From Nitrospirota bacterium (GTDB taxonomy: Bacteria > Nitrospirota > Thermodesulfovibrionia > Thermodesulfovibrionales > SM23-35): 64,000 nucleotides of DNA. Below the pieces are notes generated by a model, which was not told the DNA's origin, made no database searches, and saw only the letters and a list, made by a program, of their open reading frames with translations. The stretch's first letter is position 1. Each line of letters begins with the position of its first letter. Shown piece after piece: positions 16,678 to 53,829 of the stretch. The stretch lies in assembly GCA_040756135.1 (NCBI GenBank), contig JBFLZS010000007.1, positions 3,072-67,071 of the forward strand, read 5' to 3'. A program made the translations under genes and the position numbers.

Positions 16678-16698
16678 AATCTAACTAAATAAATTCCA

Positions 16699-16838
16699 CC
16701 TAAATTGAGCGATTTATTATCTCAATAATGCCACTGAGACAGGCGAGACGCCTGTCCTACGGGTTTGAGGTTTCACCTTTCAAGTAGGACAGCCGTCTCG
16801 GCTGTCCTTGATTTGTCAAAAGAATCGCTCAATTTAGG
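16699..16838. mobile_element. Family F MITE-like element in the fliQ-fliR spacer
   Basis: Perfect 16-bp TIRs cctaaattgagcgatt (16699-16714) and aatcgctcaatttagg (16823-16838). Internal hairpins gacaggcg-aga-cgcctgtc and ggacagccg-tct-cggctgtcc. Confidence 0.85.
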
Positions 16839-16876
16839 TTCCAATAATCAAGCACCAATGATCAAATAACAGTTCA

Positions 16877-18417: not shown

Positions 18418-19397
18418 TACAATCTCCTTTCTAATACATCTGTTATTTTCAGTGCCTGGTTGCCCCTGCTGTATCCCGGCATCCCGATGAATTTAGGCAA
18501 ACCTTCTATCCTGACGAGGAGACCGTCAGATACCGGCTTGCCGAGACTGATCACGTTGCCGACTTCAAGGTTCATAAGTTCCTCAAATGTGAGTTCCACC
18601 TTTCCGATCTCTGCCACAATCTCAACATATGAATACATGAGCATCTCTTTCAAACTGGTAACCCATCGGTGATCGGTTTCAAATTTCTCGGTCTGGACTC
18701 CGGAATACAGTTTTTCCTTGACAGACTCTATCATGGAGTAGGGAATACAGAAGAAAAACTTCCCGGCAAAATCCTCCACCTCTATATGTATTTCGATTTT
18801 TATTACTATTTCACTCGGGGTAACAATGGTCACGAATTGAGGACTCATCTCAGAGCCAACGTGTTCCGGCTGTACAGGTGCAATGCCACTCCATGCATTT
18901 GCCACATCATTCAGCGCCATTGTTACCACCTTCTTGATAACCCTCTGTTCTATGGACGTGAAGGACCTGCCTTCAGATTTGACATGCTTTGCACTGGTGC
19001 TCCCAAAAAAGAATTCCACAAAGGCAAAAACGAGAGGGGCCTCAATTACTAAGAGTGAATAACCCTTGAGGGGTTCCATCTTGAATATATTAATGCTGGA
19101 TGGAAAGGGAATGGTCTTCATGAACTCCCCGAATTTTACAATCTCCACGTTGTGAATGCTTATGTCTACAAATTTCATAATAAGAGTTGAGACTGAGTTC
19201 CTGAAAAACCTTGCAAACCTTTCGTTGGCTATTTCAAGTCCGGGCATCCTGCCACGGACTATGCGTTCCTGACTGGTAAAGTCATAGGGCCTGATTCCAG
19301 AAAGTATCTTATCCCTTGCAGTTTCTGTGTCTATCTCTCCTGCCTGCACCCCCTTAAGGAGCGCATCCACTTCATCCTGTGATAGTATGTCACTCAT
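18417..19397 (-). CDS. fliM: Flagellar motor switch protein FliM
   Basis: N-terminal CheY-P binding peptide LSQDEVDALL, FliM middle domain, C-terminal SpoA-like domain. Confidence 0.93.
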   Translation of the reverse strand: MSDILSQDEVDALLKGVQAGEIDTETARDKILSGIRPYDFTSQERIVRGRMPGLEIANERFARFFRNSVSTLIMKFVDISIHNVEIVKFGEFMKTIPFPSSINIFKMEPLKGYSLLVIEAPLVFAFVEFFFGSTSAKHVKSEGRSFTSIEQRVIKKVVTMALNDVANAWSGIAPVQPEHVGSEMSPQFVTIVTPSEIVIKIEIHIEVEDFAGKFFFCIPYSMIESVKEKLYSGVQTEKFETDHRWVTSLKEMLMYSYVEIVAEIGKVELTFEELMNLEVGNVISLGKPVSDGLLVRIEGLPKFIGMPGYSRGNQALKITDVLERRL

Positions 19398-19897
19398 TGC
19401 ATTACAAACTCCGTAAAGTAAAGATTTTTAAAGACATCCTTCCCTATTGTCTGATTGGCCCTGAGAAGGAGTTCGTCCTTTAACTGAAATTTCCCTTCAG
19501 GGCTCGATATAGACTCGAAGGTTTTGCTGCTTACGAGAATGATGATTGCATCTCTCAAATTAGGAATCTTATCAGCAACTATTTGATGATATGATTTGTC
19601 CGAAATTTCTAACTGTATAGATACCTTTAAGAATCTTCCGTGGTCTGCGAGGTTCATAACGAAGGGATCAAGGGCAAAGAGCTCTGTTTTTGCTGATTCC
19701 TTTTCTTTCTCATGGACTGTCTCACCTGACTTCAGTTTTTTCCCGATGACCATCGTGTAGGCAAAGTAACCGCTTACAAGGGAAATTAACATTGCACCTG
19801 CTATGATTATTATCAGTTTCTTCTTTCCCTTACGGGTTGTTTCTTTCTGGGGCTCACTCGACTCTTGAGATTCTTTTTCAAGCTCTTCATCTGCCAT
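19394..19897 (-). CDS. fliL: Flagellar basal-body-associated protein FliL
   Basis: Start placed at MADEELEKE (ATG at 19897) with GGAGGA upstream. Single TM (LIIIIAGAMLISLV), then a FliL domain. The longer ORF to 20026 runs into a family C repeat. Confidence 0.8.
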   Translation of the reverse strand: MADEELEKESQESSEPQKETTRKGKKKLIIIIAGAMLISLVSGYFAYTMVIGKKLKSGETVHEKEKESAKTELFALDPFVMNLADHGRFLKVSIQLEISDKSYHQIVADKIPNLRDAIIILVSSKTFESISSPEGKFQLKDELLLRANQTIGKDVFKNLYFTEFVMQ

Positions 19898-19974
19898 ATA
19901 GCTTCCTCCTGCTGCTGTATTTATGTAACCCTTCAGTAAAGCGTGGTGGTTTACAAAAGCGGCATACCCTTCGA

Positions 19975-20112
19975 CATCCTTCGACAAGCTCAGGATGACA
20001 TTGTCATGGTGAGCCTGTCGAACCATCAGGGTGACACTACTCGATACATTGTGGATTTGTCATGGTGAGCGTTCGACTGAGCTCACGCCGAAGGCTTGTC
20101 GAATCCATGACA
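19975..20112. repeat. Family C repeat (gtcatcctgagc / ggtgagc..gtcgaacc modules)
   Basis: catccttcgacaagctcaggatgacattgtcatggtgagcctgtcgaacc ... ttgtcatggtgagcgttcgactgagctcacgccgaaggcttgtcgaatccatgac. Confidence 0.7.
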
Positions 20113-20252: not shown

Positions 20253-20408
20253 AATAGTGTCTGTGTATAAACTGCTGTTCGGATAATCCGTCATTCCCCG
20301 ACTTGATCCCCCGATCAAGTCGGAGGACGGAATCCAGTGTTTTCAATATGTTCTGGATTGTCCGGTCAAGCCGGACAATGACAAAATACGACTTTATACA
20401 CAGATTCT
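20253..20408. mobile_element. Family A MITE-like element, full length
   Basis: aatagtgtctgtgtataaac ... twin hairpins ... actttatacacagattct. Confidence 0.8.
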
Positions 20409-22671: not shown

Positions 22672-24594
22672 TCACACAAAAATGCTAACTATACGATTGT
22701 TCATAGAATTGATAGGTAAATGTTTGTTTTCATCTGTTACACAAAAAACTTTCATATTTTTTTCCTCATCTTTAAATTCCTTTCTTCTGTCTTTCAGATG
22801 AACAGAAAAGCTACCGATGTTTATCCCCTCATTATGAAGGGCGTTGACGATACTATGTATGTTCCTTTCGATAAGTTCTTTGCCGACAGTTTCCGACACG
22901 CCTATTTTTGCATTTACCAAACCTCTGTCCAGACTCAGGTGGATGTCAAGCTTTCCAATCCCATCAGGCTCAAGAGAAACCTCTATGGCAGTGCCGTCTC
23001 GCCTGGTTATTATGAATGTATTTCGAAATAAGCGATTAGTCTCAGGTGTCTCTGTTGCATGATGAACAATCTTCGCACTGTCCTGATTGGTAACGTTCTC
23101 AGGAGAAGACAATGCACCTGCATGGCTGTCTATGATTTCAAGTGTTTTACCATATTGGTCATATTTCATATTTTTACTCTGTCTACCTTGTGCAGATGTC
23201 TCGCTGAGAAAAGCCATTTCGTTCCGGGTTGATTTTATGGAAGACTCAGATAACAGAGATTTGACATCGCAATCTGAAGTCGACTTTGGAATTTGCTCCG
23301 AAAATAGGGCAGGCATCTTGCCTGACAAACGAGGCAGGATGCCCCGGCTATTTTCATATTCCTTTGTGCCGACTCGTCGGCATGAGGGTTTAGGTTGCAT
23401 TACAAACAGATTGCTTTTTGCATCAGCAGGAGTTGATTCATTGCCATCTCCTGTTGCCTGGGTGTGATGAAATACTGATGCATCAGGCTCTTTTGTAAGA
23501 GAGAACGTTTGAATAAAATCCGCTTTGCCCCCCACCACAGAAAGCCACGCCCCGCACCAAAAACTTTTGGTGTCGGGGCACGGGTGTAAAGCCGTGATGC
23601 GGGGTTCATTTTGAAAGACCATATCTGACTGCATTTGAGAACTTATGGAAGATATCTGGACAAATAGGCTCTTTAATAATGATTCTTCTGTTTCACTATC
23701 AACACCCTCTGCTGACAAACCGGCAAATAGCTTGCCTATGTCAAAATGAATAGCAGGAGGTTCCTCCGTAAGAGCGGCACCTGCGTCTTTCTTGATATTT
23801 AGAAGGTCAGGTTGAACTTGCTGCTCATCCTGGGGTATCAGGTATTGTTCCCCATATCCTTTCAATCCTGAGAGTATCTGATCCGCTGACAAACCGGCAA
23901 ATAGCTTGCCTATGTCAAAATGAATAACGGGGGTTTTCTCCGTAAGATCAGCATTTGCATCCTTCTTGATATTACTACAGCGAATCTTTTCGTCATGCCC
24001 GAAGTCCTTAATCGGCCATCCACCCTTCGGCAGGCCTGTCCTGAGCAATGTGTCATCCTTCGACAAGCTCAGGATGACACAAGCCGAAGGGCTCAGGGTG
24101 ACAATTGTCATGGTGAGCTTGTCGAACCATGGATTCCGGGTCAAGCCCGAAATGACAGATGAAGGAGATGATTTCAGGTATTTTATTGAAAAGTTCGCTG
24201 TAGTGTTATTTAGAAAATCAGATTGAATTTGCTGCTCATCCTGGGGTATCAGGTATTGTTCCCTATATCCTTTCAATCCTGAGAGTATCTGATCCGCTGA
24301 TAAACCGGCAAGTAGCTTGCATATGTCAAAATGAACAACAGTAGGTTTCTCCGCAAGATCAGCACGAGAAAAAAGATTACTGAGCAGAGGTGATTGGATC
24401 TTTGTACTATCTTCAGTGGCTTGCTGGTTTTTCTGAACAGGTATAGATTGATGGTCCGGGAACATGTTCAATATGCTGCCCATGAGATCATAAAAAAAAT
24501 TATCTTCGGATTGAGCCTTTTCTGATGCGGAGGGTTTTAAGAGTTGAGAAATCACATTGGAGGTATCCAGACCATTTGTTGTTACTTCATTCAT
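22672..24594 (-). CDS. fliK: Flagellar hook-length control protein FliK, unusually long
   Basis: C-terminal Flg_hook-type domain (EVSLEPDGIGKLDIHLSLDRGLVNAKIGVSETVGKELIERNIHSIVNAL). Positioned between the ylxF-like gene and flgD. Start placed at MNEVTT (24594); the ORF track offers 24645. Confidence 0.8.
   Translation of the reverse strand: MNEVTTNGLDTSNVISQLLKPSASEKAQSEDNFFYDLMGSILNMFPDHQSIPVQKNQQATEDSTKIQSPLLSNLFSRADLAEKPTVVHFDICKLLAGLSADQILSGLKGYREQYLIPQDEQQIQSDFLNNTTANFSIKYLKSSPSSVISGLTRNPWFDKLTMTIVTLSPSACVILSLSKDDTLLRTGLPKGGWPIKDFGHDEKIRCSNIKKDANADLTEKTPVIHFDIGKLFAGLSADQILSGLKGYGEQYLIPQDEQQVQPDLLNIKKDAGAALTEEPPAIHFDIGKLFAGLSAEGVDSETEESLLKSLFVQISSISSQMQSDMVFQNEPRITALHPCPDTKSFWCGAWLSVVGGKADFIQTFSLTKEPDASVFHHTQATGDGNESTPADAKSNLFVMQPKPSCRRVGTKEYENSRGILPRLSGKMPALFSEQIPKSTSDCDVKSLLSESSIKSTRNEMAFLSETSAQGRQSKNMKYDQYGKTLEIIDSHAGALSSPENVTNQDSAKIVHHATETPETNRLFRNTFIITRRDGTAIEVSLEPDGIGKLDIHLSLDRGLVNAKIGVSETVGKELIERNIHSIVNALHNEGINIGSFSVHLKDRRKEFKDEEKNMKVFCVTDENKHLPINSMNNRIVSIFV
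23709..24365. repeat. About 165-bp coding repeat present in 2.5 copies inside fliK
   Basis: Copies at 23709-23798 (partial), 23812-23972 and 24228-24365. Each encodes (V/I)HFDIGKLFAGLSADQILSGLKGY.EQYLIPQDEQQ. Confidence 0.85.
23973..24225. repeat. Composite family A/C repeat DNA inserted in frame between fliK repeat copies
   Basis: Contains gtcatccttcgacaagctcaggatgac, ttgtcatggtgagcttgtcgaacc and ggattccgggtcaagcccgaaatgac modules. Translated as ..SPSACVILSLSKDDTLLRTGLPKGGWPIKDFGHDEK.. Confidence 0.75.
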
Positions 24595-24657
24595 GACATT
24601 CGCATAACAATAAATATGCCAGGAGTGAAATTGTAGGAATATCAAGGCTGAATGGTA

Positions 24658-24813
24658 TAAATAGTGTCTCCATAAAGTCGTATTTTGTCATTGTCCGGCT
24701 TGACCGGACAATCCAGAACCTATTGAAAACACTGGATTCCGTCCTCCGACTTGATCGGGGGATCAAGTCGGGGAATGACGGATAACTTAATTCTTAGTTT
24801 ATGGATAGATTCT
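24658..24813. mobile_element. Family A MITE-like element, full length
   Basis: aaatagtgtctccataaag ... gtcattgtccggcttgaccggacaatccag ... ggggaatgac ... agtttatggatagattct. Confidence 0.8.
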
Positions 24814-24852: not shown

Positions 24853-25401
24853 TCATTCGGTAGGAAATTTTTTCTCGATCCTTGTGAGGCCCTCGGTAAT
24901 AGATGCAACTTTCTTTGCATCCATATACGCCAGTACCGCTCCTGCTTTTTTGCTCTTCATTCCACTAATGATCTCTATTGCTGTACGTTCATCAAGGGCG
25001 GCGAGTTTCGAAGCTGCTTCTTCAGGCGGCATGCCTTCATAAATCTTGACAACATATTCAAGTCTCTCAGCCTTGATCTTCTCGATCTGTTTCAGTTTTA
25101 TATCAAGTTCGCTTAAAAGCTTTGTATATTTCTCTATCTTCTCTTCGATGTCTTTTTTAAGGGCATTCAGCTTCTTGTCTTCTTTCTCGAGCTGCTCCTC
25201 CTTGATTTTTAATTCCTTCTGTTTTTTCTCAATCAACGAAACAACATCATCCTGGGCTGATGTAGAAACAGAAAACAGGGCACAGAGAAAAGAACACAGA
25301 ACACAGCCAATAAAAAATACATTTATTGAGGCTCTTGCAAAAGTCATGAAAGCCGCTGTTTTTGTCATTTCGAGTGAAACGAGAAATCTTTTAATCAACA
25401 T
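24853..25401 (-). CDS. YlxF/MotE-like flagellar protein (N-terminal anchor, coiled coil, MgtE-N-like domain)
   Basis: Positioned between fliJ and fliK as in B. subtilis ylxF. K/E-rich coiled coil, then YEGMPPEEAASKLAALDERTAIEIISGMKSKKAGAVLAYMD. The start is uncertain (25401, 25368 or 25347). Confidence 0.65.
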   Translation of the reverse strand: MLIKRFLVSLEMTKTAAFMTFARASINVFFIGCVLCSFLCALFSVSTSAQDDVVSLIEKKQKELKIKEEQLEKEDKKLNALKKDIEEKIEKYTKLLSELDIKLKQIEKIKAERLEYVVKIYEGMPPEEAASKLAALDERTAIEIISGMKSKKAGAVLAYMDAKKVASITEGLTRIEKKFPTE

Positions 25402-25459
25402 GTTTCAAGATTCCTCACATTCGTTCGGAATGACGATTTGTAACTTTTGCAAGAGCCTC
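25328..25459. mobile_element. Family G MITE-like element overlapping the 5' end of the ylxF-like gene
   Basis: Perfect 17-bp TIRs gaggctcttgcaaaagt (25328-25344) and acttttgcaagagcctc (25443-25459). Internal hairpin modules gtcatttcgagtgaaacgagaaatc and gattcctcacattcgttcggaatgac. Flanked by cacagaacacag-type family D arms (25266-25308, 25465-25490). Confidence 0.8.
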
Positions 25460-30365: not shown

Positions 30366-30677
30366 TTATACCTGCATCCTCATGATCTCTTCATAGGCGC
30401 TCAACAGCTTATTCCTCACCTCAACCATCAAATTAAAAGACATGTCTGCTTTCTCCATAGCTATAATCGCCTGGGTTATATCACCGCCTGACGCCAATTC
30501 TTTGACAGCTTTTTCAGCATCGTTCTGCACCAGATAAATCTTACCAACGGCCTCATGCAATATATCGTCAAATCCCTGAGCTGAAGCCTTGCTGTCAGCC
30601 TTAACCTGTAATCCCCCCTCGCCCCCCTTTAGTAAAGGGGGGGTGGTGGGATTATTCGCAATCCTCATATCAGACAT
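30366..30677 (-). CDS. fliE: Flagellar hook-basal body protein FliE
   Basis: C-terminal AIIAMEKADMSFNLMVEVRNKLLSAYEEIMRMQV. Positioned upstream of fliF. Confidence 0.85.
   Translation of the reverse strand: MSDMRIANNPTTPPLLKGGEGGLQVKADSKASAQGFDDILHEAVGKIYLVQNDAEKAVKELASGGDITQAIIAMEKADMSFNLMVEVRNKLLSAYEEIMRMQV
30610..30653. repeat. Family B-prime 44-bp palindrome in frame near the FliE N-terminus
   Basis: aatcccccctcgcccccctttagtaaagggggggtggtgggatt, translated as NNPTTPPLLKGGEGGLQ. Confidence 0.85.
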
Positions 30678-30769: not shown

Positions 30770-30903
30770 CTGTCTGTGTATAAACTAATAATTAAGTTAT
30801 CCGTCATTCCCCGACTTGATCGGGGAATCCAGTGTTTTCAAAGACCTATGGATTGTCCGGTCAAGCCGGACAATGACAAACCCCGACTTTATACACAGAC
30901 TCT
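30770..30903. mobile_element. Family A MITE-like element, full length (good reference copy)
   Basis: ctgtctgtgtataaac ... gtcattccccgacttgatcggggaatccag ... ggattgtccggtcaagccggacaatgac ... actttatacacagactct. Confidence 0.85.
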
Positions 30904-37963: not shown

Positions 37964-38093
37964 GTCTGTCCATAAATTATGACTTATACAATTAGTCATT
38001 CCCCGACCTGATCGGGGAATCCAGAGTTTTTAATAGGCCATGGATTGTCCGGTCAAGCCGGACAATGACAGAATATGAGTTTATGGACAGACA
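37964..38093. mobile_element. Family A MITE-like element, full length
   Basis: tgtctgtccataaat ... twin hairpins ... gtttatggacagacat. Confidence 0.85.
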
Positions 38094-38146: not shown

Positions 38147-38287
38147 AAAATCTCCCCTTGCCCCTCTTTACCAAAGAGGGGTATGGTTCGGCAAGCTCAC
38201 CATGACATTTGTCATCCTGAGCCTGTCGAAGGATGGCAAAGGGAGGCTTCTGCGTGAACTCGGCCGAACGCTCAGGAGAAATTTTCC
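38147..38287. repeat. Family B element interrupted by a family C module
   Basis: aaaatctccccttgcccctctttaccaaagaggggtatggt, then tcggcaagctcaccatgacatttgtcatcctgagcctgtcgaaggatg, then gcaaagggagg... Confidence 0.7.
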
Positions 38288-49802: not shown

Positions 49803-49858
49803 AAATTGCACATGAGAGTTATGCAATGTTAGAAACAACGTCCCCAAAAGTCATCCCT

Positions 49859-50010
49859 AGAAAAACCAGATAAATTCCATTGCGAAGCAATGACTTCCAG
49901 TTCAGAATGAACTCAATTCCAGAGCGTAGCTCTACCTTCCATTCCAAAGGAATAACTTGATAAACCAGATAAACGAAAATGTCTCATGTCAAGGTGCGAC
50001 CCTATAAGGC
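49859..50010. repeat. About 150-bp repeat block, copy 1
   Basis: agaaaaaccagataaattccattgcgaagcaatgacttcc...ttgataaaccagataaacgaaaatgtctcatgtcaaggtgcgaccc. Almost identical by eye to 52308-52463. Preceded by the 30-mer caatgttagaaacaacgtccccaaaagtca (49824-49853). Confidence 0.9.
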
Positions 50011-52307: not shown

Positions 52308-52463
52308 AGAAAAACCAGATAAATTCCATTGCGAAGCAATAACTTCCAGTTCAGAATGAACTCAATTCCAGAGCGTAGCTCTACCTTCCATTCCAAAGGA
52401 ATAACTTGATAAACCAGATAAACGAAAATGTCTCATGTCAAGGTGCGACCCCATAATAAGGCA
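52308..52463. repeat. About 150-bp repeat block, copy 2
   Basis: Same sequence as 49859-50010, with a few substitutions (for example gcaataacttcc versus gcaatgacttcc) and a small indel at the 3' edge. Confidence 0.9.
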
Positions 52464-53735: not shown

Positions 53736-53766
53736 GCGCACAAAAGTCAACAATGTTAGAAACAAC

Positions 53767-53829
53767 GTCCCCAAAAGTCAGTCCCCAAAAGTCACAACGC
53801 GTCCCCAAAAGTCACAACGTCCCCAAAAG
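53767..53829. repeat. Four copies of gtccccaaaag(tca) immediately upstream of the methyltransferase start
   Basis: gtccccaaaagtca gtccccaaaagtca caacgc gtccccaaaagtca caac gtccccaaaag. The first copy belongs to the 30-mer also present at 49824-49853. Confidence 0.85.

Follow-up and report, generated by a model that had tools for sequence, protein, structure and literature searches.

How did the flagellar hook-length control protein FliK of a Nitrospirota bacterium come to be 640 amino acids (aa) long, and has its extra length been selected or only tolerated? The gene lies on the minus strand at positions 22672..24594 of a 64,000-nucleotide stretch of DNA (the window), taken from contig JBFLZS010000007.1 of the assembly GCA_040756135.1. 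The best explanation, given here a probability of roughly 0.72, is that fliK was lengthened from ~444 to 640 aa by tolerated in-frame passenger insertions together with amplification of a unit of coding sequence. At least four in-frame events would have followed the split from the closest sampled relative, all upstream of the C-terminal T3S4 domain. A 58-codon unit would have been amplified and rearranged (net ~+64 aa), and a 231-bp miniature inverted-repeat transposable element (MITE) would have transposed into the first unit, duplicating 6 bp of the target (+79 aa). A 96-bp pair of palindromes resembling repetitive extragenic palindromic (REP) sequences would have been inserted (+32 aa), and an 81-bp GC-rich palindrome would have taken the place of 18 bp (net +21 aa).

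Four length changes in one fliK gene

The coding sequence is intact, from an ATG at 24594 to a stop at 22672-22674. The list of open reading frames (ORFs) carries the frame out to a TTG at 24645 (minus-strand ORF 22672-24645), and the ATG at 24594 agrees with the start of the orthologue P0002. The product is identical to the NCBI entry 'MAG: flagellar hook-length control protein FliK [Nitrospirota bacterium]', 640 aa (MAG, metagenome-assembled genome). Its C-terminal Flg_hook domain, of the T3S4 type (22789..22995, minus strand, ~aa 534-603), matches Pfam PF02120 with 42.3 bits against a cutoff of 29.8 (E 6.7e-11). The flagellar neighbours, recognized from ORFs and Pfam matches, are flgE, flgD, an MgtE_N-like gene, fliJ, fliI and fliH; fliK is placed between the fliJ/MgtE_N-like genes and flgD-flgE, downstream of fliH-fliI-fliJ and upstream of flgD/flgE, and the gene order around it is the same on three other contigs (L001, L002 and L235). 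By the Flg_hook match and flagellar synteny, the gene at 22672-24594 (minus strand) is fliK, and an earlier note on this DNA, which named it so and gave its product about 640 aa, was correct on both. FliK has 577 homologues at E<=1e-3, of ~280 to ~770 aa among the matches listed, and the best 150 of the 577 align best to the C-terminal region (~aa 390-640).

Among 5.8 billion protein clusters searched, only two relatives turned up for the orthologue group besides FliK itself: P0002 (444 aa, encoded on L001) and P0003 (391 aa, encoded on L002). Neither carries any of the four length changes. L001 shares 93-95% nucleotide identity with the window over most flagellar genes and ~89% across flgE, flgD and fliK, with a synonymous divergence (dS) of 0.16-0.31. 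The FliK of the window is ~196 aa longer than the L001 orthologue, and all of the difference lies upstream of the T3S4 domain. The expansion proposed in the earlier note is thus upheld when length and repeat content are compared among relatives (640 vs 444 and 391 aa, with lineage-specific blocks), although that note covered only two of the four changes, the unit duplication and a 237-bp block.

The first change concerns a coding unit with a period of 174 bp (58 codons), present in ~2.7 copies. Unit heads (HFDI...) begin at 24333, 23922 and 23748, and the layout consists of a tail remnant (U0), two full units (U1 and U2) and the head only of a third (U3). U0 is a 20-aa remnant, SPLLSNLFSRADLAEKPTVV (24334..24393, minus strand), recognized in protein and DNA alignments; it stands where the ancestral YDKDSNKFCQNVNAILS... 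segment was in alignments to the orthologues, and in the comparison of units it resembles the unit tail LLNIKKDANADLTEKTPVI. U1 (23923..24333, minus strand) is split by the MITE and is 89% identical to U2 (23749..23922, minus strand) once the insert is removed. The U3 head, HFDIGKLFAGLSAEG (23704..23748, minus strand), is also carried by the relatives. Direct-repeat copies are found at 23708-23799, 23882-23973 and 24293-24384 (87% and 72% identity to the reference copy), and a 161-nt stretch at 23793-23953 is 91% identical to 24204-24364; the blastn E-values of 1e-26 and 9e-60 are well beyond chance. The 174-bp repeat escaped Tandem Repeats Finder, because the insert throws the copies out of tandem register.

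The unit copies diverge from each other at 9-13% of positions. Because U1 and U2 are closer to each other than either is to the single unit of L001 (76-77% identity), amplification or later homogenization occurred in the lineage of the window. The sequence comparison thus supports a unit duplication specific to that lineage. Unit gain and the rearranged upstream junction amount to a net ~64 aa relative to both orthologues. The earlier note had described 2.5 copies of a 165-bp unit: the duplication is real, but the period is 174 bp. The peptides it quoted, HFDIGKLFAGLSADQILSGLKGY.EQYLIPQDEQQ and VILSLSKDDTLLRTGLPKGGWPIKDFGHDEK, are present in the FliK translation.

The second change is the MITE, here called ins1 (23974..24204, minus strand), which is bounded by terminal inverted repeats and contains nested palindromic modules rich in GC. 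The start-to-start spacing of the units is 411 bp across ins1 versus 174 bp, so the insert together with its target duplication adds 237 bp, exactly 79 codons. An insert of about 250 bp had been reported between two units; it exists, but it measures 237 bp and lies inside the first full unit, after ...SDFLN. The 16-nt terminal inverted repeats, ACTACAGCGAAYYTTT, lie at 23974-23989 and 24189-24204 and match at 14 of 16 positions. These are the only two sites in the window that match the terminal repeat, against 0.11 expected; a parent insertion sequence would be expected to end in ACTACAGCGAA. Immediately outside are the two copies of the target-site duplication, read on the gene strand as AATATC (23968..23973, minus strand) and, with one substitution, as AATAAC (24205..24210, minus strand; from sequence and alignment). 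The empty site is preserved in the paralogous U2 as CTA-AATATC-AAG and in L001 as AATGTC.

A second copy shows that ins1 is mobile. A protein search with the 79-aa ins1 peptide gave one match, a 74-aa ORF on a Logan contig (L233), and the underlying DNA (L233:4990-5130) is a 141-bp relative of ins1 with identical ends on an unrelated metagenome contig, bearing its own 6-bp flanking duplication (ATTAAT/ATTAGT). The window copy holds ~90 bp more nested GC-rich palindromic modules than this relative. Its core (24054-24130) matches intergenic modules of the window at 19975-20026 and 38183-38238, and its inner modules recur, similarly ordered, in another Nitrospirota genome, where they form an intergenic array (L024:913-1022). 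As RNA, ins1 folds at -91 kcal/mol (z = -5.9 vs shuffled controls). Both copies are small and the element has no transposase gene inside. No second element with the ins1 terminal repeats was found in the 64-kb window or among 112 loci, and no transposase was found by Pfam on 10 ORFs at 47-53 kb, no wider search having been made. Judged by its terminal repeats, the 6-bp target duplication, the sites that are empty in relatives and the copy on L233, ins1 appears to be a true MITE, mobile-element DNA read in frame, which bears out the earlier proposal of MITE-derived DNA in fliK.

An intron, intein or other spliced element was rejected as the identity of ins1, given the terminal inverted repeats, the target duplication and the lack of any catalytic-RNA match. 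An Rfam scan of the whole window matched 0 families, and the repeats of the window are therefore not a described RNA. On the opposite strand, an 86-aa ORF (23966-24226, plus strand) is open across the whole MITE; it is probably a by-product of the palindromic modules and not a gene.

The two remaining changes, ins2 and ins3, were not mentioned in the earlier note. Both lack a counterpart in L001 and L002 and both have unique sequence on either flank. The 96-bp (32-codon) block ins3 (23293..23388, minus strand) consists of two REP-like palindromic modules, and both halves recur elsewhere. The hairpin half matches three loci (L160, L144 and L185) at 85-88% over 51-54 nt, and at least 120 metagenome contigs contain its motif, GGCATCYTGCC..GGCARGATGCC. 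For the other half, the matches are L027:1427-1469 and L065:3175-3215, where it adjoins other modules. The fold of ins3 reaches -40 kcal/mol (z = -4.0 vs shuffled controls). The other block, ins2 (23527..23607, minus strand), is an 81-bp GC-rich (60%) imperfect palindrome that takes the place of 18 ancestral bp, for a net gain of 63 bp or 21 codons, and its hairpin reaches -41 kcal/mol (z = -3.3 vs shuffled controls). No second copy of ins2 was found in the window or 232 loci by sensitive blastn, nor in a metagenome scan for the hairpin-core pattern or a four-frame protein search at E<=10.

Integrity of the lengthened gene

All four length changes are multiples of three (174, 237, 63 and 96 bp). 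The sense strand is open in one of three frames for ins1 and in two of three for ins3, and on a rough estimate the chance that all four events would keep the frame is ~2.5%. Neither a stop nor a frameshift, either of which the earlier note would have taken as a sign of inactivation, is found within the inserts, and the fliK frame is open throughout. For fliK as a whole, the ratio of nonsynonymous to synonymous substitution rates (dN/dS) against L001 is 0.39; it falls to 0.22 in the C-terminal domain, which all inserts precede, and the neighbouring flagellar genes have values of 0.10-0.33. Over the ~530 aa ahead of the T3S4 domain, the ratio is a relaxed 0.48-0.53. A comparison of FliK with the Protein Data Bank by sequence gave 0 matches at E<=1. 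Candidate peptides that span insert junctions in FliK are ...SDFLNNTTANFSIK... and ...IRCSNIKKDANADL....

The contig belongs to a MAG and the region contains repeats, so that the duplication and the insertions could in principle come from short reads mis-joined through repeats. Such an artefact is highly improbable, because the unit copies differ by 9-13%, and are thus not identical repeats that were collapsed or expanded, and because the MITE junction is exact: ins1 cuts the unit at one position and is flanked by a duplicated target whose 6-bp original is intact in the paralogous unit and in L001. Moreover, every junction is in frame, and ins2 and ins3 are anchored in unique sequence. The assembly error that the earlier note had raised against its own proposal therefore does not hold.

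A gene that is open could still be dead or crippled, if the passenger peptides or hairpins block export or switching and leave the cell with polyhooks or without motility. The insert peptides are hydrophobic in part (LTMTIVTLSPSACVILSLS) and rich in Cys and Trp in part (HPCPDTKSFWCGAWLSVVGG), the predicted mRNA hairpins (-91, -41 and -40 kcal/mol) are strong, and in Salmonella the integrity of the linker is reported to matter for switching (PMC6972891). This possibility is nonetheless quite unlikely: four changes that all keep the frame would be rare by chance (the estimated ~2.5%), the remaining flagellar cluster is intact and conserved (dN/dS 0.10-0.33), Salmonella FliK tolerates heterologous inserts of up to 380 aa, and similar in-frame modules occur in two other fliK orthologues.

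Tolerance or tuning of the hook

The distribution of repeats in the window bears most directly on why the insertions persist. In a self-comparison, the other repeat modules checked in the window were all intergenic, at a gene junction or in a spurious N-terminal ORF extension. Compared with L001 over the ~23 kb that the two have in common, the window carries additional repeat DNA at no fewer than six intergenic or junction sites and at three sites in fliK, and in none of the other coding sequences. The modules of ins3 and the inner modules of ins1 resemble REP sequences and bacterial interspersed mosaic elements (BIMEs) in being short GC-rich imperfect palindromes with many copies, often in composite arrays. 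REP sequences are extragenic by definition (PMC12306157), yet the copies in fliK lie inside the reading frame and would be translated. From this distribution it is inferred that the part of FliK outside the T3S4 domain behaves almost like neutral or intergenic DNA toward palindromic elements.

Tolerance would work as follows. The genome would be heavily bombarded by small palindromic elements, and selection would purge them from ordinary coding sequence. The ruler and linker of FliK would need only to be an exportable spacer and could therefore tolerate such elements nearly as intergenic DNA does; those that land in phase and with an open frame would persist as passenger peptides. A longer hook would be a by-product. 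Engineered Salmonella FliK variants of 363-785 aa are secreted and functional and switch export, and hook length rises linearly with FliK length at 0.2 nm per residue (PMC6126814). At that rate, the hook is predicted to be ~39 nm longer than in the relative with a 444-aa FliK. As in the engineered proteins, foreign sequence upstream of the T3S4 domain would lengthen the ruler, there to 785 aa. Unlike the engineered inserts, which were chosen helical segments of YscP, the inserts described here are natural, come from non-coding repeats and are known from sequence alone.

The lengthening could also have been selected for a motility niche, with fliK as a contingency locus whose length varies within populations. 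Ruler length sets hook length in Salmonella, where motility has an optimum near the wild-type hook length (PMC6126814), and the injectisome ruler YscP ranges from 452 to 538 aa among strains of Yersinia enterocolitica through changes in repeat number (PMC3469391). The four independent lengthenings all go in one direction, and there has been no shortening except for a lost YDKDSNKF... segment. Conversely, only three alleles of the fliK orthologue group are known, the inserts belong to selfish palindromic families that fill intergenic spacers, and survivors that are in phase are expected under plain tolerance. The unit copies are 9-13% diverged and hence not a fast-switching repeat tract. Adaptive tuning is therefore unlikely, and it is more probable that a change in hook length was tolerated as a side effect than that it was selected as an adjustment. 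The earlier note had suggested that repeats may be tuning hook length in this lineage and that the region may be polymorphic. Neither suggestion found support: passenger tolerance fits the three fliK insertions, with no other coding sequence hit in ~23 kb, better than tuning does, and three related alleles in all of the clusters searched do not indicate a polymorphism.

Several observations weigh against tolerated passenger insertions as the explanation. An AlphaFold2 model of the full protein reached a mean predicted local distance difference test score (pLDDT) of 26.7 from a 3-sequence alignment; it is unusable and gives no conformation for the inserts, so that the conversion to nanometres per residue is a guess. 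Salmonella FliK variants of at least 520 aa swim worse (PMC6126814), and by analogy a gain of 196 aa might carry a cost and not be neutral. In Salmonella, export switching is reported to require the linker (PMC6972891), and ins2 and ins3 could by the same analogy interfere with switching. Finally, ins2 is an orphan palindrome, and only its composition and symmetry speak for a mobile origin.

Tolerance of passenger sequence may extend beyond this one gene. Two other fliK genes of Nitrospirota carry in-frame modules, so that in-frame insertions are found in at least three fliK orthologues, from different element families and at different positions. The fliK of P0019 (434 aa) has an in-frame module at L234:215-329 that matches family-A modules in more than 20 loci. 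The fliK of P0005 (391 aa) has one at L235:3260-3398 that matches an intergenic element of the window at 16698-16843 (77% over 137 nt, E 1e-20), and a second at L235:3527-3577 that matches three other sites in the window. It is a tentative and rather doubtful generalization that in Nitrospirota of the Thermodesulfovibrionia type the FliK ruler is a recurrent landing pad for mobile palindromic DNA and that heritable changes in hook length come mainly from selfish repeats, and not from point mutation or slippage. If it were true, nature would offer a direct path by which transposon activity alters a dimension of a molecular machine on the scale of nanometres.

Both in-frame MITEs and type III secretion rulers of variable length were known before, and the locus adds a new case of each. 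The inserts resemble the Rickettsia palindromic elements and intragenic MITEs of the ERIC, BOX and Nezha types in being palindromic, non-autonomous and translated in frame with the host protein kept (PMC10969869), a likeness of kind and not one drawn from sequence comparison. In contrast to the Rickettsia elements, the host is a member of the Nitrospirota, the insertions are concentrated in one gene of the compared region and not spread over many metabolic genes, and the elements are built up from short GC-rich hairpins in modular arrays, one of them inside a MITE with terminal repeats and a target duplication. As in YscP, spacer length shifts between close relatives through unit duplication (units of 14-46 aa there, 58 aa here); unlike fliK, YscP is described with tandem repeats only and no mobile-element insertions, and it sets the length of a needle and not a hook (PMC3469391). 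The literature search found no relevant report of MITE or REP-like insertions in fliK.

The locus thus joins two studied ideas, that rulers measure by their own physical length and that small palindromic mobile elements are absorbed into proteins. Within the clade such insertion may recur, and the comparative setting is unusually clean: FliK proteins of 444 and 640 aa in otherwise similar flagellar clusters form a natural experiment. The experiment asks whether 0.2 nm per residue applies to inserts that are neither designed nor helical, how much arbitrary sequence an exported ruler tolerates, and whether bombardment by repeats drives variation in the dimensions of a machine whose linker evolves almost as intergenic DNA does.

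Palindromic modules and other repeats outside fliK

Directly upstream of fliK is an intergenic family-A MITE (24656..24809, no strand assigned), a member of a 7-copy family with 99% identity to 20286-20397; the window has 149 bp here and L001 none. Between fliJ and the MgtE_N-like gene, the window carries the palindromic modules GTCATTCCGAACGAATGTGAGGAATC and GATTTCTCGTTTCACTCGAAATGAC (25360-25450). These two genes lie apart in the window and overlap by 4 bp in L001. The N-terminus of the downstream protein differs in the window and may read through a module. A further palindromic element of ~146 bp lies between fliR and fliQ (16698-16869), where 172 bp in the window are unaligned against 107 bp in L001.

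In the ORF list, fliL (19394-20026, minus strand) is 210 aa long and fliE (30366-30677, minus strand) 103 aa, whereas the lengths in L001 are 165 and 96 aa. Both 5' ends run into a repeat module. The true starts of fliL and fliE likely lie further downstream, and annotation pipelines may therefore over-extend both genes.

A 28-nt palindromic module, GTCATTGTCCGGCTTGACCGGACAATCC, is present in the window in 5 exact copies (81-108, 20355-20382, 24687-24714, 30850-30877 and 38042-38069) and 2 near copies. Exact copies are also present in species-representative genomes of several phyla, on at least 110 contigs (L003-L112), with hosts that include Omnitrophota, Nitrospirota, Treponema/Spirochaetaceae, Stahlbacteria, Geobacter and Thermodesulfobacteriota. 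That the same 28-mer is shared by different phyla suggests either horizontally spreading elements or a strong convergent constraint. In the contigs that carry the hairpin motif of ins3 (GGCATCYTGCC-N8-14-GGCARGATGCC; at least 120, L113-L232), the complementary flanks typically start with GTGG, GTAG or ATAG and the contexts are both AT-rich and GC-rich. These hairpins look like a very widespread REP-like superfamily.

Two repeats of the window are of another kind. A 149-bp direct repeat (49859-50007 and 52308-52456, 98.7% identity) is not of the palindromic-module type, and a 35-bp repeat occurs at 49824-49857 and 53751-53785 (97% identity). Together they flank a small block that encodes a truncated epimerase/dehydratase, DUF7718 and DUF5647, and they could delimit an island or a rearrangement.

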